From the NCBI GenBank assembly GCA_036489235.1, contig DASXGC010000334.1:1850-65849 (forward strand): 64,000 bases of DNA. The letters run 5' to 3'. A program made the translations under genes and the position numbers. The DNA is from Vicinamibacterales bacterium (lineage in GTDB: Bacteria > Acidobacteriota > Vicinamibacteria > Vicinamibacterales > CAVVIG01). Below are positions 22,106 through 26,355 of the stretch, piece by piece. The notes under the pieces are model-generated. The model had not been told where the DNA came from. It saw nothing but the letters and a program-made list of their open reading frames with translations, and made no database searches. Every line of letters begins with the position of its first letter. Positions within the stretch are counted from its first letter, which is position 1.

Positions 22106-23473
22106 TCATGACGGCGTCGGGCGTTCCAGCTTGAACTTCTCTATCCGGTAGCGAATCTGGTCGCGATTGAGCCCGAGCAGCGTGGCGGCCTTCGTCTGGT
22201 TCCAGCCGCTTCGCTCCAGCGCCTGCACGACCAGCGAACGCTCGAGTTGTTCGAGGTCGACGCCGGTCGGCGGCAGGGGCACTCCCTCGGTGAGGCGCGA
22301 GCCCTCGCCGCCCACGGTGAAGTCCGCCGCGGTCAGTTCGGGGCCGTCGGCCAGCAGCATCGCGCGTTCGACGACGTTTCGGAGTTCGCGGATGTTTCCC
22401 GGCCACCCATACGTCTGAAGCCGCTTCATCGCGTCGTCCGACACCGAGCGGATGCGCTTGCGAAATTCCGTGTTGTAGCCGTCGATAAAGTAGTGCACCA
22501 GCGCGGGTATGTCGTCGGCCCTGGCGCGCAGCGGCGGAAGTACGATCGGCAGGACATTCAAGCGGTAATAGAGGTCCTCGCGAAAGCGTCCCTTCTTCAC
22601 TTCGTCTTCGAGCAGACGATTGGTCGCAGCGACCACTCGGACATCGACTTTGATGTCGGTCACGCCACCGACTCGCTTGAACGTCTTCTCTTCGAGGAAT
22701 CGCAGCATCTTGGCTTGTAGGCCGGGCGCCATCTCTCCGATCTCGTCGAGGAACACTGTGCCACCGTCAGCCGACTCGAGGAGGCCGCGCTTCTGCTGAC
22801 GCGCATCTGTGAAGGCGCCCCGCTCGTGGCCGAAGAGCTCGCTCTCGAGAATCTGCTCGGGGATCGCCGAGCAGGTGATATTCATGAAGGGCCGCGACGC
22901 ACGGTCGCTGGCGTAGTGCAGCACCTTGGCCGCCAGGTCCTTGCCGGTGCCGCTCTCGCCTGTCAGCAGCACGGTGGACGAGGGGCTGGACGCCACCTTC
23001 TGCAGGAGCGCCTTGGCGTTCGTGATCGCCTGGCTGTGCCCGACGATGCGATCGACGCTATAAGGCCGCGCCTGACTGGCGCGGAGCGTGCGCACTTCCC
23101 GGCGCAGTCGCGTGGTTTCGAGCGCTTTCTCGACCAGGAGCGCAATTTCATCGAGGTTGAACGGCTTATTGGCGTAGTGATACGCGCCCGCCTTCATCGC
23201 TTCGACCGCGGTCTCTACGCTCGAGAATCCGGTCAGCAGAATGACCAGCGTCTCTGCATCCGCAGCCTTGATCTTCCTGAGCACGTCGAGGCCGTCGCCA
23301 TCGGGCAGCTTGTAATCGAGGAGTACGAGGTCGACGCCTTCGGCGTGGCGCTCGAGCGCCGCGGCAGCAGTGTCGGCTTCAACCACCCGGTAGCCCATCG
23401 CAGAAAGGCGCTCGCTCAGCGACCAGCGAATCAGCTGCTCGTCGTCGACGACGAGGATCGTCGGTGTTGGCAT
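22106..23473 (-). CDS. Sigma-54-dependent Fis-family response regulator (NtrC-type enhancer-binding protein)
   Basis: Receiver domain ([21 protein letters not shown]), AAA+ domain ([18 protein letters not shown] variant of GAFTGA), Fis-type HTH ([23 protein letters not shown]). Confidence 0.9.
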
Positions 23474-23479
23474 GCGTGC

Positions 23480-23902
23480 CTAGTATATGCGTCCGTTCAG
23501 GGCGCGTTCGACCGCCGCGGCCAGGCCGGTCAGGTCGAAAGGCTTCGACACGATGCCCGAACCGAGTGCCGTCGCCTGCTGTGCGATCTCGGGCGTCATG
23601 AACGCGCTCATTATGATGACCGGCAGGGCCGGCGCCGCGGCGCGAATCCGCGACAGCACACCCAGATTTTGTGCGTCCGGCATGTCGAGCAGTACGAGAT
23701 CGCAACCAGTCCCCAGCGCCAGCGCGGACTGCGCATCGGCCGCTTCGATGACGTCAAATCCCCGCGTGCGCAAGGTTTCGCTCACCGCCCACCGGACCAG
23801 CCATTCGTCATCGACCACGAGCACGCGCGCTGCGAATTGTTGCCCGGAGTCCGCGGGATTTCCCGGCGTCTCCAGTCGCATACTCGTGTTTTCGCCCAGC
23901 AT
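23480..23902 (-). CDS. Single-domain response regulator (receiver only)
   Basis: ARVLVVDDEWLVRW..DLVLLDMPD..VIIMSAF..SKPFD. Its stop lies 6 nt upstream of the bEBP gene's start codon. Confidence 0.8.
   Translation of the reverse strand: MLGENTSMRLETPGNPADSGQQFAARVLVVDDEWLVRWAVSETLRTRGFDVIEAADAQSALALGTGCDLVLLDMPDAQNLGVLSRIRAAAPALPVIIMSAFMTPEIAQQATALGSGIVSKPFDLTGLAAAVERALNGRIY
23740..23876. repeat. Copy 1 of an imperfect ~135-bp direct repeat (5' part of the receiver gene)
   Basis: Aligns by eye with 24207-24341 at roughly three-quarters identity, e.g. GCTGCGAATTgTTgCCC..TCCGCgGGATTTCCCGG..CCAGT. Confidence 0.6.
23851..23866. promoter_or_regulatory. CGCG-N8 AT-core motif (candidate UAS) inside the receiver gene's 5' end
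   Basis: CCGCG-GGATTTCC-CGG, about 105 bp upstream of the -24 element at 23964. Confidence 0.3.
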
Positions 23903-23962
23903 TTCACTTCCCCAAACCTGCTAATCAAGAAGCCGGCCATGCATGGGGCGCGACGTGCGAAT

Positions 23963-23978
23963 CTGGCATCGCACTTGC
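23963..23978 (+). promoter_or_regulatory. -24/-12 (sigma-54-type) promoter-like site for the 64-aa membrane ORF
   Basis: TGGCATC-GCAC-TTGCG, the best consensus match in the window (TGGCA..TTGC, GG-N10-GC). It lies 33 nt before ATG 24011. Confidence 0.6.
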
Positions 23979-24010
23979 GGGTGTGCCGGCAGGAACGTCA
24001 AGGAGGGGTT

Positions 24011-24205: not shown

Positions 24206-24206
24206 A

Positions 24207-24341
24207 ACCGCGTCGATCTCGTCGACCCCCGCGCGCAGGGTTCGTCCACTGTCCACAGGACGAGCCCTTTCGTGGGCGATCACGACGACGCCCGCTGCGA
24301 ATTCTTACCCAGCGTCCGCAGGATTTCCCGGTATCCCAGTG
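24207..24341 (-). pseudogene. Degenerate copy of the receiver gene's 5' end (repeat copy 2)
   Basis: Reads PGNPADAG*EFAAGVVVIAHERARPV.. against ETPGNPADSGQQFAARVLVVDDEWLVRW in the intact gene. It has an in-frame stop and has lost the DD acidic pocket. Confidence 0.55.
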
Positions 24342-24417
24342 GCAGAGTCGCACCCTGCCACTTCACGATCCCAACCAGCAGAATCACGAAACCGGCATCG
24401 GGAGAAACGACTCGAGA

Positions 24418-24810
24418 TCAGTGAATGGGGAGCGCCTCGGTGACGAGGTCAGCCATCTGATGGACTTCGAACGGCTTGTTGACCACGTGACGCGCGCCCA
24501 GTGCCAGCGCCTGCTCGATCATCTCCGCAGTGCTGTATGCCGTCATCATGATGACCGGAACGGATGGCGCATCGTGCCGAATGGAGGCGAGGAGTTGAAG
24601 GTCGTTGGAATCCGGCAGATGGTAGTCCAGCACCACGGCATCCGGCCTGGGGTGACCGTCCACGAAGGCGCTCCGCGCCGCGGTCGCGTCGACCGCCTCG
24701 GCAACAAGGTATCCCTTGGCCTCGAGTACCTCGCGCAACGCCCAGCGAATGAGCAGTTCGTCGTCGACAACGAGGACCAGGAGTCGTGGATCCGAACTTT
24801 TCAACGCCAA
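24418..24810 (-). CDS. Single-domain response regulator (receiver only)
   Basis: LLVLVVDDELLIRW..AVVLDYHLPDSND..VIMMTAY..NKPFE. TTG start with GGAG upstream. Confidence 0.8.
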   Translation of the reverse strand: MALKSSDPRLLVLVVDDELLIRWALREVLEAKGYLVAEAVDATAARSAFVDGHPRPDAVVLDYHLPDSNDLQLLASIRHDAPSVPVIMMTAYSTAEMIEQALALGARHVVNKPFEVHQMADLVTEALPIH

Positions 24811-24894
24811 TGGGAAAAATCTCCGATCGGCGGAGCAAAAACGACGTTATTCGGTCGCATGAACCGAGGGCGATCCAAGAAGCGGGCCGTACCG

Positions 24895-26355
24895 CTAGGG
24901 TTGAGCCTTAAGCGGCAGCTGAAGCAGGACCGTCGTGCCGCCGCTGTCCGGGCACAGCAATGCCATTGAACCGTTTTGGGCTTCCATAAACCGCCTGGCG
25001 GTGGAGAGTCCAAGTCCGGTACCGCGCGACTTGGTCGTGAAAAACGGGGTGAAGAGCTTTTCGCGCACCTCTGGGAGAATGCCCGGCCCTGAATCGACGA
25101 CCGCAATCGTGCCGCAGTCCCCAGAGGACCCGAGCTCGATCCGGACGCCGCCGCTCCCCTTCATCGCCTGCACGGCGTTCAAGAGGAGGTTCTGCAGGAT
25201 CAACTTCAGCAGCTCCGCATCTGCCGCCACAGGCGCAGACGTGCCCGTCACGGCGAATCCCACGCCGCGTGCCGTGGGATCCTGTCGCACCAGCTCAATC
25301 GCCGACAGCACAATTGGCTGGAGCTCGATCGACGCGATCTTCGGCCGCGGCGGTCGCGCGAACAGCAGCAAATCCTTCATCAGCTCGTTCAGCGCATCGA
25401 TCCGGGCGACGATCTCCTTGATCACCTCGGCGTCGCGGCTGCCCGCCGGCAGCCGTCCGCCGATGATCTGCACGGCGCCTCGGATCCCGGTCAGCGGATT
25501 CTTGACCTCATGTGCGACCACGGCGGCCATCTCGCCCAGTCGCTTCAACGCCTCCTGTTCACGTAACTGCGTCTCGAGCCGTACCCGCTCGGTCAGGTCG
25601 TGCAGGATGCCGGTGAACTTCTTCTCGCCGTCAATGGTCATTTCTCCGACCGAGAGCTGCAGCGGAAACGTCGACCCGTCCTTCCGGCGTCCCGTCACCT
25701 CCCGGCCGATGCCGATGATGTGCCGTTCACCGGTCGAAAGATGCCGCTTCAAGTACTGATCGTGTTCGGAACGGTACGGCTCCGGCATCAGCATGTTCAC
25801 GTTCTGTCCGACGACTTCCGCCGCGGAGAACCCGAAGAGCCGCGTGGCGGCGACATTCAACGATTCGACGCGACCCAGGTGATCGATCACGATGATCGCA
25901 TCCACCGCCGAGTCCACGACCGATCGATACCGTTCTTCGCTCGCATCGAACGCCGCGTGGATTCGCCTGGATTCGGTGATATCGCGGGCAATCGCCGACG
26001 CGCCGAGAATGCGTCCAGTGACGTCGAGAATGGGCGAGACAGTCAACGAGACCGTCAGCAATCGGCCGGCGCGAGTGCGCCGGACCGTCTCGTGCGAGGG
26101 GACTCGCCGGCCCGCCCGAATTTCGTCGAGGATCCGCCGAAACTCGCGCTGGTGCTCCTCGGGGATGATCAGGCTGATCGATCGCCCGATGGCGTCGGCG
26201 GCGCTGTAGCCGTACATCCGCTCCGCGGCCGCGTTCCAGCTGACGATCGTACCGTCCAGCGCCTTGCCGATGATCGCGTCATCCGATGACTCGACGATGG
26301 CGCGCAGCAGGCCGCCCGGCTCGTCGTCGGGCAGGAAACCGGGAGGAGAAGGCAT
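24895..26355 (-). CDS. Cytoplasmic PAS-PAS histidine kinase with a FixL-type haem-binding PAS domain
   Basis: The second PAS, [57 protein letters not shown], closely resembles the haem-PAS of rhizobial FixL as I recall it (..ILMPEP.R..HD.Y..RY..T....IIGI.R.V.G.RKDG.TFPM.L..GEM). Candidate proximal His198 is at codon 25762-25764. HisKA motif [11 protein letters not shown] and an HATPase_c domain are present. No TM segment. Confidence 0.85.
   Translation of the reverse strand: [486 protein letters not shown]

Follow-up and report, generated by a model that had tools for sequence, protein, structure and literature searches.

A FixL-type heme-PAS sensor kinase beside a sigma-54 activator: a predicted low-oxygen-response module in a Vicinamibacterales bacterium

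Introduction

Which regulator does a FixL-type oxygen sensor serve when FixJ is not its neighbour? The question is raised by a locus within a 64,000-nt stretch of DNA, here called the window, from a Vicinamibacterales bacterium (assembly GCA_036489235.1, contig DASXGC010000334.1, positions 1,850 to 65,849). The locus encodes a sensor histidine kinase with a FixL-like heme-PAS domain, two stand-alone NtrC-type receivers, RR1 and RR2, and a sigma-54 activator (Table 1). The domain identities, the conservation of the heme pocket, the class of the transmitter, the gene linkage and the statistics of promoters and regulatory sites presented below suggest, on balance, that the locus is a two-component low-oxygen-response module built by module shuffling, one that would drive a sigma-54 stress regulon. 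To our knowledge, nothing is known of oxygen sensing in these Acidobacteriota, though they are abundant in soils where oxygen fluctuates.

Organization of the Locus

The window has a high GC content of about 62-67%, and the nearest homologues of its proteins belong to metagenome-assembled genomes (MAGs) of Vicinamibacterales or Acidobacteriota. A check of open reading frames (ORFs) and Pfam domains bore out the four minus-strand genes of the original prediction with their coordinates and domains, including the short spacing of 6 nt between the RR2 stop (23480-23482) and the activator start (23473). Beside the kinase there are indeed a pair of receiver-only proteins and a sigma-54 activator of the NtrC type, and a scan of the window genes found no FixJ-type gene adjacent to the kinase. 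The description of the four as a co-oriented cluster holds for their strand, but the genes are not contiguous: a plus-strand ORF of 64 amino acids at 24011-24205, missed earlier, lies between RR1 and RR2. Because this ORF, which encodes a small membrane protein, has its own Shine-Dalgarno sequence (AAGGAGG, with an ATG start), it splits kinase-RR1 and RR2-activator into separate transcription units, and the cluster comprises at least two such units. A scan for sigma-70 promoters and terminators between 21 and 29 kb gave 1 and 3 matches, respectively, at or under shuffle expectation, with no promoter for either unit; an Rfam scan of the window gave zero matches.

The Heme-PAS Sensor

The second PAS domain of the kinase (PAS-B) is of the FixL type, as had been proposed from the sequence context of His198. 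It matches the solved heme domains of Bradyrhizobium japonicum FixL (1dp6, E = 1.3e-38) and Sinorhizobium meliloti FixL (1d06, E = 6e-37), values far past chance. His198 aligns with the proximal His200 of B. japonicum FixL (BjFixL), and kinase residues R204, H212, I213, I216, R218, L234 and V236 align with BjFixL R206, H214, I215, I218, R220, L236 and I238, respectively. Six of the pocket residues (H198, R204, I213, R218, L234 and V236) are unchanged in 12 family members, and the same six are retained in the more distant relatives of 612 amino acids. H212 and I216 are absent from this invariant list; the family consensus at position 212 is R, which we take to match S. meliloti FixL.

The structural model agrees with this picture. 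An AlphaFold model of the full kinase, built on a 12-sequence alignment, is of moderate quality (pLDDT 72, pTM 0.37). Its PAS-A (residues 16-126) and PAS-B pair superposes on the dimeric PAS structures of BjFixL (8js5/8js6) with template modelling (TM) scores of 0.64-0.69 in Foldseek, and the kinase model matches ZraS with a TM score of 0.61. These matches are consistent with the sequence results and add little to them.

Heme-PAS domains of this type are joined to a wide range of kinases. When the heme-PAS alone served as query, an exhaustive search returned 7,257 representatives at E <= 1e-30, a ranking dominated by the summed scores of multi-PAS giants. The 65 pocket-positive sequences inspected, a sample biased to multi-copy proteins, carry one to four copies of the heme-PAS in tandem, joined to transmitters of at least seven classes as counted with author-made regular expressions, and the canonical FixL H-box occurs in 1 of the 65. 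Since the module is joined to so many classes, its presence on a non-FixL transmitter is unsurprising in itself.

Tandem copies also occur among the relatives of the kinase. Those of about 612 amino acids (P0004, P0008, P0011 and P0119) have a pair of FixL-type heme-PAS domains in tandem, both with the His/Arg pocket, located at L003:8418-9146, L006:7010-7726 and L007:581-1306, an arrangement that could allow cooperative or dual-range oxygen sensing. Four metagenomic kinases (P0165, P0169, P0176 and P0183) have three or four tandem pocket-positive domains and end in hybrid, PhoR-like, BphP-like or HWE transmitters. We know of no characterised kinase with three or four tandem FixL-type heme-PAS domains.

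A Transmitter of Another Class

The original prediction of a rewired FixL-type kinase stands for the heme-PAS domain but not for the transmitter, which is of the ZraS/AtoS/NtrB class and, as such, normally paired with sigma-54 activators. Residues 260-486 match Escherichia coli ZraS (9jfj) with 137.7 bits (E = 4e-39) and the BjFixL transmitter, taken from LOV-FixL chimeras, with 62 bits. The best NCBIfam model for the whole kinase is AtoS (NF008468) at 292 bits, under its cutoff of 646; the ZraS equivalog scores 172 bits, under its cutoff of 479. Against the FixL equivalog (NF041777) the kinase reaches 271 bits, with a cutoff of 850, and the best-matching stretch covers only residues 112-313. 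The H-box around phospho-accepting His282 reads AHEVKNPL, in agreement with the class pattern HE(I/V)(K/R)NPL, compared with AHEIRNPL in ZraS and AHELNQPL in FixL (the latter sequence checked against the PDB); the catalytic and ATP-binding (CA) domain spans residues 379-483. By these comparisons the kinase reads as a mosaic, in which a PAS-A/heme-PAS sensor, the only FixL-like part, is mounted on a transmitter of the ZraS/AtoS/NtrB class.

The linker between the two halves appears to preserve the logic of the sensor. The distance from the DLTE motif to the phospho-accepting His is 29 residues in the kinase and 36 in BjFixL, exactly one heptad less, and in the linkers of PAS kinases a change by a heptad length keeps the coiled-coil register. 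Because this register is preserved, the signal polarity of FixL, in which oxygen turns the kinase off, is probably kept.

Public JGI entries for these proteins (P0001, P0029, P0066, P0071 and others) carry the name "two-component system, LuxR family, sensor kinase FixL". The name implies a FixJ partner, which is contradicted by the transmitter class and the gene neighbourhood.

Three Related Receivers

RR1, RR2 and the receiver of the activator share 42-44% pairwise identity, and NtrC/AtoC/NtrX receiver models give each of them its highest score, above that of FixJ. All three contain the acidic pair, the phospho-acceptor Asp (62, 73 and 53, respectively), the T/S and the Lys, residues that are invariant in 12 orthologues of the stand-alone receivers. 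They also have in common an alpha1 helix of the form L-I/V-R-W-S/A-L/V-x-E. In two-component systems this helix holds most of the contacts that determine kinase specificity. The residues equivalent to Spo0F positions 14, 15, 18, 21 and 22 are LISER, LIAEV and LVAET in the three receivers, SIVRA in E. coli NtrC and PVSFM in S. meliloti FixJ. The shared helix fits a single kinase that would serve all three receivers.

RR2 has an N-terminal extension and a conserved C-terminal GR(I/V)Y and is found only in the closest relatives. RR1 contains no Cys and RR2 contains one; a FixT-like iron-sulfur (Fe-S) receiver was ruled out because neither has the 4-Cys motif (PMC7078487). A relay through a histidine phosphotransferase (Hpt) protein was likewise rejected, as neither the cluster nor the conserved neighbourhoods yielded a gene with an Hpt domain. 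The branched or multi-step phosphotransfer of the original prediction is plausible as a hypothesis. With no Hpt gene present, a role of the stand-alone receivers as sinks or competitors is more likely than a relay.

Conservation of the Linkage

The locus was compared with 83 loci retrieved through conserved peptides of the transmitter. In most of them, across many phyla, a gene for a sigma-54 AAA+ protein lies no more than 1-2 kb away. The linkage of kinase, RR1, in some cases RR2, and activator is found in L001, L002, L004, L005, L006, L008, L022 and the Planctomycetota MAG locus L017; kinase, receiver and activator have stayed together across the Vicinamibacteria. The order kinase-RR1-RR2-activator recurs in L001, L002 and L004 (kinase identity 68-73%, activator identity 84-90% in intact alignments) and the order kinase-RR1-activator in L005 (kinase identity 63%). 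In the 612-aa group the order is kinase-activator-RR in L006 (49%), and in L008 (45%) an activator-RR pair is divergent from the kinase. Usp genes are repeatedly found beside these clusters.

Frameshifts split the activator gene in L001 (9996-11626) and L002 (10408-11782), and also RR2 in L001. These frameshifts, which occur in large MAG contigs, are probably assembly indels and not marks of pseudogenes.

A heme-pocket-positive kinase with an activator beside it occurs in Acidobacteriota and in Planctomycetota locus L017, whose transmitter is 41% identical; for L025, a Polyangia locus, the case is ambiguous. Two gammaproteobacterial loci, L026 and L029, serve as a control. Their kinases have the heme pocket, their transmitters are only 27-31% identical, and each is followed by a gene with a receiver and a LuxR-type helix-turn-helix (HTH), the C-terminus of which is 59-62% identical to that of S. 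meliloti FixJ. In this small sample, the class of the partner tracks the transmitter and not the sensor domain. This suggests that the FixL-type heme-PAS kinase of the window arose by a swap of the sensor module, with the partner following the transmitter.

The small membrane protein is conserved in L001, L002 and L004 (tblastn) and also in L019 and L020, and has no family match. In L001, L002 and L004, RR1 and RR2 are contiguous and the small membrane gene sits elsewhere in the neighbourhood; this difference in position between the window and L001/L002 points to local rearrangement. In L001 (5289-5486) and L002 (5281-5478) the gene, of 64/65 codons, is found about 2.5 kb upstream of the kinase, where it stands behind a 402-aa ORF and beside PFOR genes.

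The Activator, Its Candidate Sites and Promoters

The activator, the sole sigma-54 activator gene in the window, is AtoC/NtrC-like. It combines a receiver with Asp53, a Walker A motif (GESGTGKD), a sigma-54 contact loop (GAFTDA, residues 219-224), a lid and a Fis-type HTH, and matches PF00072, PF00158 (1e-66), PF25601 and PF02954. The key motifs are invariant in 6 orthologues, among which the HTH is almost unchanged.

Six sigma-54-type -24/-12 elements are positioned immediately 5' of gene starts in the right orientation (Table 1). The regulatory sites that accompany them were defined outside the window: a palindrome of about GCGGAAATTTCCGC, with a GGAAA/TTTCC core, emerged de novo from the non-window loci only, and its motif score of 214.9 exceeded those of 12 of 12 shuffled runs (maximum 164) and 12 of 12 random-locus runs (maximum 199). 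Sites resembling GCGGAAATTTCCGC lie 20-170 bp 5' of most of the predicted sigma-54-like promoters. Such a palindrome stands 20-170 bp upstream of 6 of the 16 sigma-54 matches in the window, where 0.4-0.6 would be expected (P = 2e-4 to 9e-4). The window matches to this matrix that rank 1st, 3rd, 4th and 8th lie upstream of the promoters of Usp3, Usp1, the small membrane protein and the cyclopropane fatty acid (CFA) synthase, and the best of them pointed to a Usp gene not previously looked at, Usp3.

Usp genes were also counted across the window and the pocket-positive loci. A -24/-12 element scoring at least 11 occurs within 220 nt upstream of 6 of 15 Usp genes, the six being the first genes of operons, compared with a null rate of 3.1% (p = 3e-6). 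The stretch 30-170 bp 5' of sigma-54-type elements is 11-fold enriched for the word GCCGGAA (p = 3.5e-10), and related GGAAAT words are enriched there as well. In relatives the same combination of promoter and site precedes Usp genes, an Hsp20-like gene, a PFOR-adjacent operon, and a NifU-like gene with a second activator.

That second activator lacks a receiver. Its gene follows the NifU-like gene in L001, L002 and L004, an arrangement not found in the window. In these three loci (L001:11929-13323, L002:14284-15624 and L004:10833-12084) the strongest sigma-54 promoter of the locus (TGGCACG-N4-TTGCC), with tandem enhancer sites, lies directly downstream of the receiver-containing activator gene and precedes the NifU-like gene and then the receiver-less activator. 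The NifU-like operon of the relatives may constitute a regulatory cascade.

Table 1. Genes and predicted regulatory elements of the locus (window positions)
Feature	Position	Strand	Remarks
Two enhancer-like sites	16252-16265, 16274-16287		5' of Usp3 promoter; 16252-16265 is the top matrix match in the whole window, 16274-16287 was spotted by eye
-24/-12 element GGGCATGCGTATTGCG	16336-16351	+	Before third Usp gene
Third Usp gene (Usp3)	16364-16873	+	GTG start; predicted target
SulP/STAS transporter gene	16967-18673		After third Usp gene
CFA-synthase-like gene	19841-21094	-	Pfam CMAS 1e-82; NCBIfam; predicted target
-24/-12 element TGGCAGGCAAACTGCA	21183-21198	-	Before CFA-synthase-like gene
Enhancer-like sites	21225-21238, 21276-21291		5' of CFA-synthase-like promoter
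Sigma-54 activator gene	22106-23473	-	455 aa; Pfam Response_reg, Sigma54_activat, AAA_lid_14, HTH_8
RR2 gene, stand-alone NtrC-type receiver	23480-23902	-	140 aa; Pfam Response_reg only; Asp73
Two enhancer-like sites GCGAATTGTTGCCC, GCGGGATTTCCCGG	23832-23866		About 100-130 bp 5' of 23964 promoter, within 5' end of RR2 gene; GCGAATTGTTGCCC spotted by eye only
-24/-12 element TGGCATCGCACTTGCG	23964-23979	+	Before small membrane protein gene
Small membrane protein gene	24011-24205	+	64 aa; between RR1 and RR2; predicted sigma-54 target
RR1 gene, stand-alone NtrC-type receiver	24418-24810	-	130 aa; Pfam Response_reg only; Asp62
Sensor histidine kinase gene	24895-26355	-	486 aa, soluble; Pfam PAS (two), HisKA, HATPase_c
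Heme-PAS domain (PAS-B) of kinase	25591-25929	-	Residues 143-255; proximal His198, codon 25762-25764
Enhancer-like palindrome GCGGGAAATTCCCA	26430-26443		63 bp 5' of Usp1 promoter; third-best window match to matrix trained on other loci
-24/-12 element CGGCACGCAGAATGCT	26506-26521	+	Before Usp1-Usp2 operon, divergent from kinase
Usp1 gene	26544-27023	+	Pfam Usp E = 1e-32; tandem with Usp2; predicted target
Usp2 gene	27020-27517	+	Pfam Usp E = 3e-34; predicted target
153-aa protein gene	28110-28571	-	No Pfam or NCBIfam match; possible target
Weaker sigma-54-like element	28608-28623	-	Before 153-aa protein gene
Central site GCGCGAAATTTTCCGG	28704-28719		Between the 28608-28623 and 28811-28826 elements; spotted by eye, longer spacer, matrix score below 9.1
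Weaker sigma-54-like element	28811-28826	+	Before flavoprotein gene
Dihydroorotate-dehydrogenase-like flavoprotein gene	28851-29900	+	NF005741, 406 bits (cutoff 303); possible target

A Model for the Module

The features of the locus point to the following sequence of events. PAS-B would very probably bind heme b through His198. It is likely, given FixL biochemistry and the preserved linker register, that oxygen bound at the distal Arg218 would hold the kinase off and that a drop in oxygen would lead to autophosphorylation on His282. There is good reason to expect that the phosphoryl group would then pass to Asp53 of the adjacent NtrC/AtoC-type activator, on account of the transmitter class, the conserved gene linkage and the alpha1 signature shared by the receivers. 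The activator, by in silico prediction, would reasonably be expected to occupy tandem GCGGAAATTTCCGC-like sites and to turn on the local sigma-54 promoters. Predicted targets are the three Usp genes, the 64-aa membrane protein and the cyclopropane-fatty-acid synthase and, less certainly, the dihydroorotate-dehydrogenase-like flavoprotein and the 153-aa protein; in relatives they would also include the Hsp20-like, PFOR-adjacent and NifU-plus-second-activator operons. More tentatively, RR1 and RR2, as paralogues of the activator receiver, might compete for the kinase as phosphate sinks or feedback modulators, a competition that would set threshold and kinetics.

Several observations weigh against this model. 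The contact loop of the activator is GAFTDA and not the canonical GAFTGA, with the Phe and Thr retained (across six orthologues, GAFTDA is found in the window, L004, L008 and L022, and GAFTGA in L005 and L006), and rpoN was not among the window genes scanned. The activator may not be an obligatory partner of the kinase: L003, on a 569-kb contig, encodes the kinase and RR1 but lacks an activator within 8 kb, and L007 has the same pair without an activator on a 2.7-kb contig. The receiver-less activator of L001, L002 and L004 could be an alternative binder of the palindrome. As to the promoters, the consensus TGGCAC-N5-TTGCW with at most 2 mismatches matches the window 13 times where 24 matches are expected, and the enhancer matrix alone, at a score of at least 10, matches 10 times where 9.2 are expected; because the raw consensus count is not above chance, promoters were judged by their position and orientation to genes and by the orthologous loci. 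Only the position and co-occurrence of the sites are significant, and the frequencies of the sigma-54 matrix are the author's own approximation. The k-mer statistics are inflated by the kinship of L001 and L002 and by AT-rich intergenic DNA. The promoter pair at 28.6-28.8 kb with its central site appears to be the weakest part of the regulon. Finally, heme binding, the ligand and its polarity, every phosphotransfer step, DNA binding and the identity of the palindrome binder are what we infer from sequence.

Other explanations of the locus account for part of these data. The kinase might direct its output to RR1 through protein-protein contact, in the manner of FixT, DivK or CheY, while the activator is served mainly by another kinase and lies nearby only since its regulon clusters there. 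RR1 does adjoin the kinase in each of the eight acidobacterial loci examined that are pocket-positive, L003 and L007 among them, the activator stands beside a second kinase in L022 and L025, and kinase-RR1 and RR2-activator are separate transcription units in the window. This explanation is nevertheless rather unlikely: the transmitter class lies beside sigma-54 activators in many phyla, in L005 and L006 the activator comes immediately after the kinase or RR1, the alpha1 contact signature common to the three receivers predicts a shared kinase specificity, and the window cluster encodes no further kinase. Several receivers beside one kinase would also fit a multi-step phosphorelay from the kinase to RR1 (or RR2), a histidine phosphotransferase and then the activator. 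We regard such a relay as very unlikely, with its phosphotransferase missing from the cluster and its neighbourhoods, a kinase that is not hybrid, and an activator receiver whose kinase-contact helix is like that of RR1 and RR2, so that direct transfer is simpler.

Other doubts concern the signal and the identity of the kinase. Heme-PAS domains bind several diatomic gases and are joined to many outputs, and related loci contain genes of the NifU-like and Fe-S-related kinds. The sensor could therefore respond to nitric oxide (NO), carbon monoxide (CO) or heme redox state, or be activated by oxygen, and govern a nitrosative- or redox-stress regulon. In established FixL biochemistry, R220 and R206 couple oxygen binding to kinase inhibition. 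Both residues, the distal R218 (BjFixL R220) and R204, are invariant here, the linker differs from that of FixL by 7 residues with its register kept, and the targets (Usp, Hsp20-like genes and the PFOR-adjacent operon) are typical of hypoxia responses, all of which makes another signal or the opposite polarity unlikely. That the kinase is an ordinary FixL, with FixJ encoded elsewhere and the adjoining receivers and activator unrelated to it, is suggested by the JGI names of the kinase and its relatives and by a HisKA_3 kinase and LuxR-type regulator pair 32 kb away, which holds the only LuxR-HTH gene in the window. This identity is extremely improbable: the score falls far below the FixL equivalog cutoff with a good match in the PAS region only, the H-box is not that of FixL, no FixJ is adjacent, the genuine FixL-FixJ pairs of the survey carry transmitters of another kind, and the distant LuxR-type regulator has an adjacent kinase of its own. 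Oxygen control of the adjacent sigma-54 activator remains the preferred interpretation.

Comparison with Known Systems

A comparison with FixL-FixJ of rhizobia and Caulobacter is instructive. Both sensors are soluble, with the same order of PAS-A and heme-PAS-B, the proximal His, distal Arg and hydrophobic pocket in common, and a DLTE coiled-coil linker in the same heptad register. FixL, however, is partnered by the LuxR-type FixJ, while the kinase of the window has a transmitter of another class and a sigma-54 activator. FixJ acts through nifA transcription and a NifA cascade; here oxygen would reach sigma-54 directly, with no adjacent FixK step. If the model is correct, the rhizobial cascade from FixL through FixJ and nifA to NifA and sigma-54 would shrink to a single phosphotransfer step.

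The predicted targets recall another system. In Mycobacterium, the heme kinases DosS and DosT sense hypoxia and, through DosR, induce Usp, alpha-crystallin/Hsp20 and anaerobic-metabolism genes. There the sensor is a GAF-heme domain, the regulator is of the NarL type and the promoters are those of sigma-70. The hypoxia-responsive heme kinase and the Usp/Hsp20-type targets are alike in the two cases, whereas sensor, regulator and promoter class differ from those of the locus. By analogy, the module would be a sigma-54 counterpart of the DosS/T-DosR or FixLJ-FixK hypoxia and dormancy regulons and, if so, the third such route to a regulon of the DosR/FixK kind, assembled independently of the other two.

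Output components resemble those of ZraS-ZraR, AtoS-AtoC and NtrB-NtrC. The dimerization (DHp) and CA domains and the receiver-AAA+-Fis regulators belong to the same classes, and the receivers here have the NtrC-type alpha1 (IRW). The inputs of ZraS, AtoS and NtrB are periplasmic metal, acetoacetate or PII; the input here is a FixL-type heme-PAS, with two extra stand-alone receivers.

FixL-type sensors with other partners or accessory receivers have precedents. FxkR is described as an OmpR-type regulator. In hFixL-FxkR of Rhizobium leguminosarum and R. etli, it is this non-FixJ regulator that is paired with the FixL-type heme sensor (PMC7888657). There hFixL is a hybrid kinase; the kinase of the window is not hybrid, and its partner is a sigma-54 activator. 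FixT of Caulobacter is, as here, a stand-alone receiver encoded with a FixL-type oxygen kinase (PMC7078487), which makes a feedback or sink role plausible. FixT has a 4-Cys Fe-S motif; RR1 and RR2 are instead NtrC-type paralogues of the receiver of the output regulator.

The nearest functional analogue is NmpRSTU of Myxococcus xanthus, in which a globin-coupled heme oxygen kinase works with a receiver-only sink, a hybrid kinase and the NtrC-like NmpR (PMC6211767, PMC11841059). NmpR controls an oxygen-utilisation regulon that includes a Usp through tandem dyad enhancers, GCGCA-N5-TGCGC (PMC6211767, PMC11841059). Heme oxygen kinase, receiver-only protein and NtrC-like regulator are thus found in both systems. 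In NmpRSTU, however, the sensor is a globin (protoglobin), the top kinase is switched on by oxygen, and the signal passes through the hybrid response regulator-kinase NmpS; the locus has a heme-PAS, and its cluster encodes no hybrid kinase. The enhancers also differ, GCGCA-N5-TGCGC (PMC11841059) compared with the GCGGAAATTTCCGC-like palindrome, as does the phylum.

The original prediction regarded the architecture as undescribed for FixL-type sensors. In weak support, a literature search of an incomplete library found no description of a FixL-type heme-PAS kinase with a sigma-54 activator, including in Acidobacteria or Vicinamibacter; on the other hand, the general architecture has already been characterised in NmpRSTU. 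Novelty is limited by NmpRSTU, hFixL-FxkR and FixT and by the fusion of heme-PAS domains to many transmitter classes. The locus rewires known parts in an arrangement that is conserved yet uncharacterised, and is not a categorically new mechanism; with its components and overall logic known already, it extends existing understanding and overturns nothing.

Its possible significance lies elsewhere. Vicinamibacteria, and possibly some Planctomycetota, might have a hypoxia or dormancy programme in which a dedicated sigma-54 activator answers directly to a FixL-type heme-PAS kinase and reads an enhancer code of its own (about GCGGAAATTTCCGC), while one or two paralogous receivers act as a tunable phosphate buffer, a view we hold tentatively. 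If true, this would be the first defined oxygen regulon for a dominant, little-studied soil phylum, and the relatives with tandem heme-PAS domains would extend or sharpen its oxygen range. KEGG- and JGI-style names of the "FixL, LuxR family" kind predict the wrong partner for a widespread kinase family. The locus offers a testable circuit of sensor, three receivers, activator, enhancer motif and Usp-dominated targets, and a natural system for how paralogous stand-alone receivers shape the output of a kinase.

Additional Observations

The HisKA_3 kinase and LuxR-type regulator pair lies at 57486-59472 on the plus strand, beside an RND efflux operon (52993-57320), and is unrelated to the heme-PAS kinase; its LuxR-type regulator is encoded at 58816-59472. 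An OmpR-type regulator gene is found at 37579-38283.

Other features accompany the predicted promoters. The transcription start predicted for the Usp3 promoter falls at or a few nucleotides from the GTG codon (16364), with no visible Shine-Dalgarno sequence between 16336 and 16375, and the Usp3 mRNA may be leaderless. A weak sigma-54-like element on the minus strand (16173-16188) is divergent from the Usp3 promoter and shares its enhancer sites; it faces a small regulator gene (15578-15901, minus strand), PadR-like as judged by eye, and an RND efflux operon (9822-15581). At 24318-24331, in the gap where the small membrane gene and RR1 converge, lies an orphan enhancer-like site, GCAGGATTTCCCGG, with a matrix score of 9.8 and without a -24/-12 element in its vicinity. 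On the plus strand, the ORF at 21363-21854 has a Usp-like start, MTSSRRVLFASDFSKAS, and ends in a TonB C-terminal domain (Pfam 1e-17; Usp 0.009), which suggests that it is probably a fusion or a remnant. It has a weak sigma-54-like element (21372-21387), and its enhancer region is also that of the CFA-synthase-like gene.

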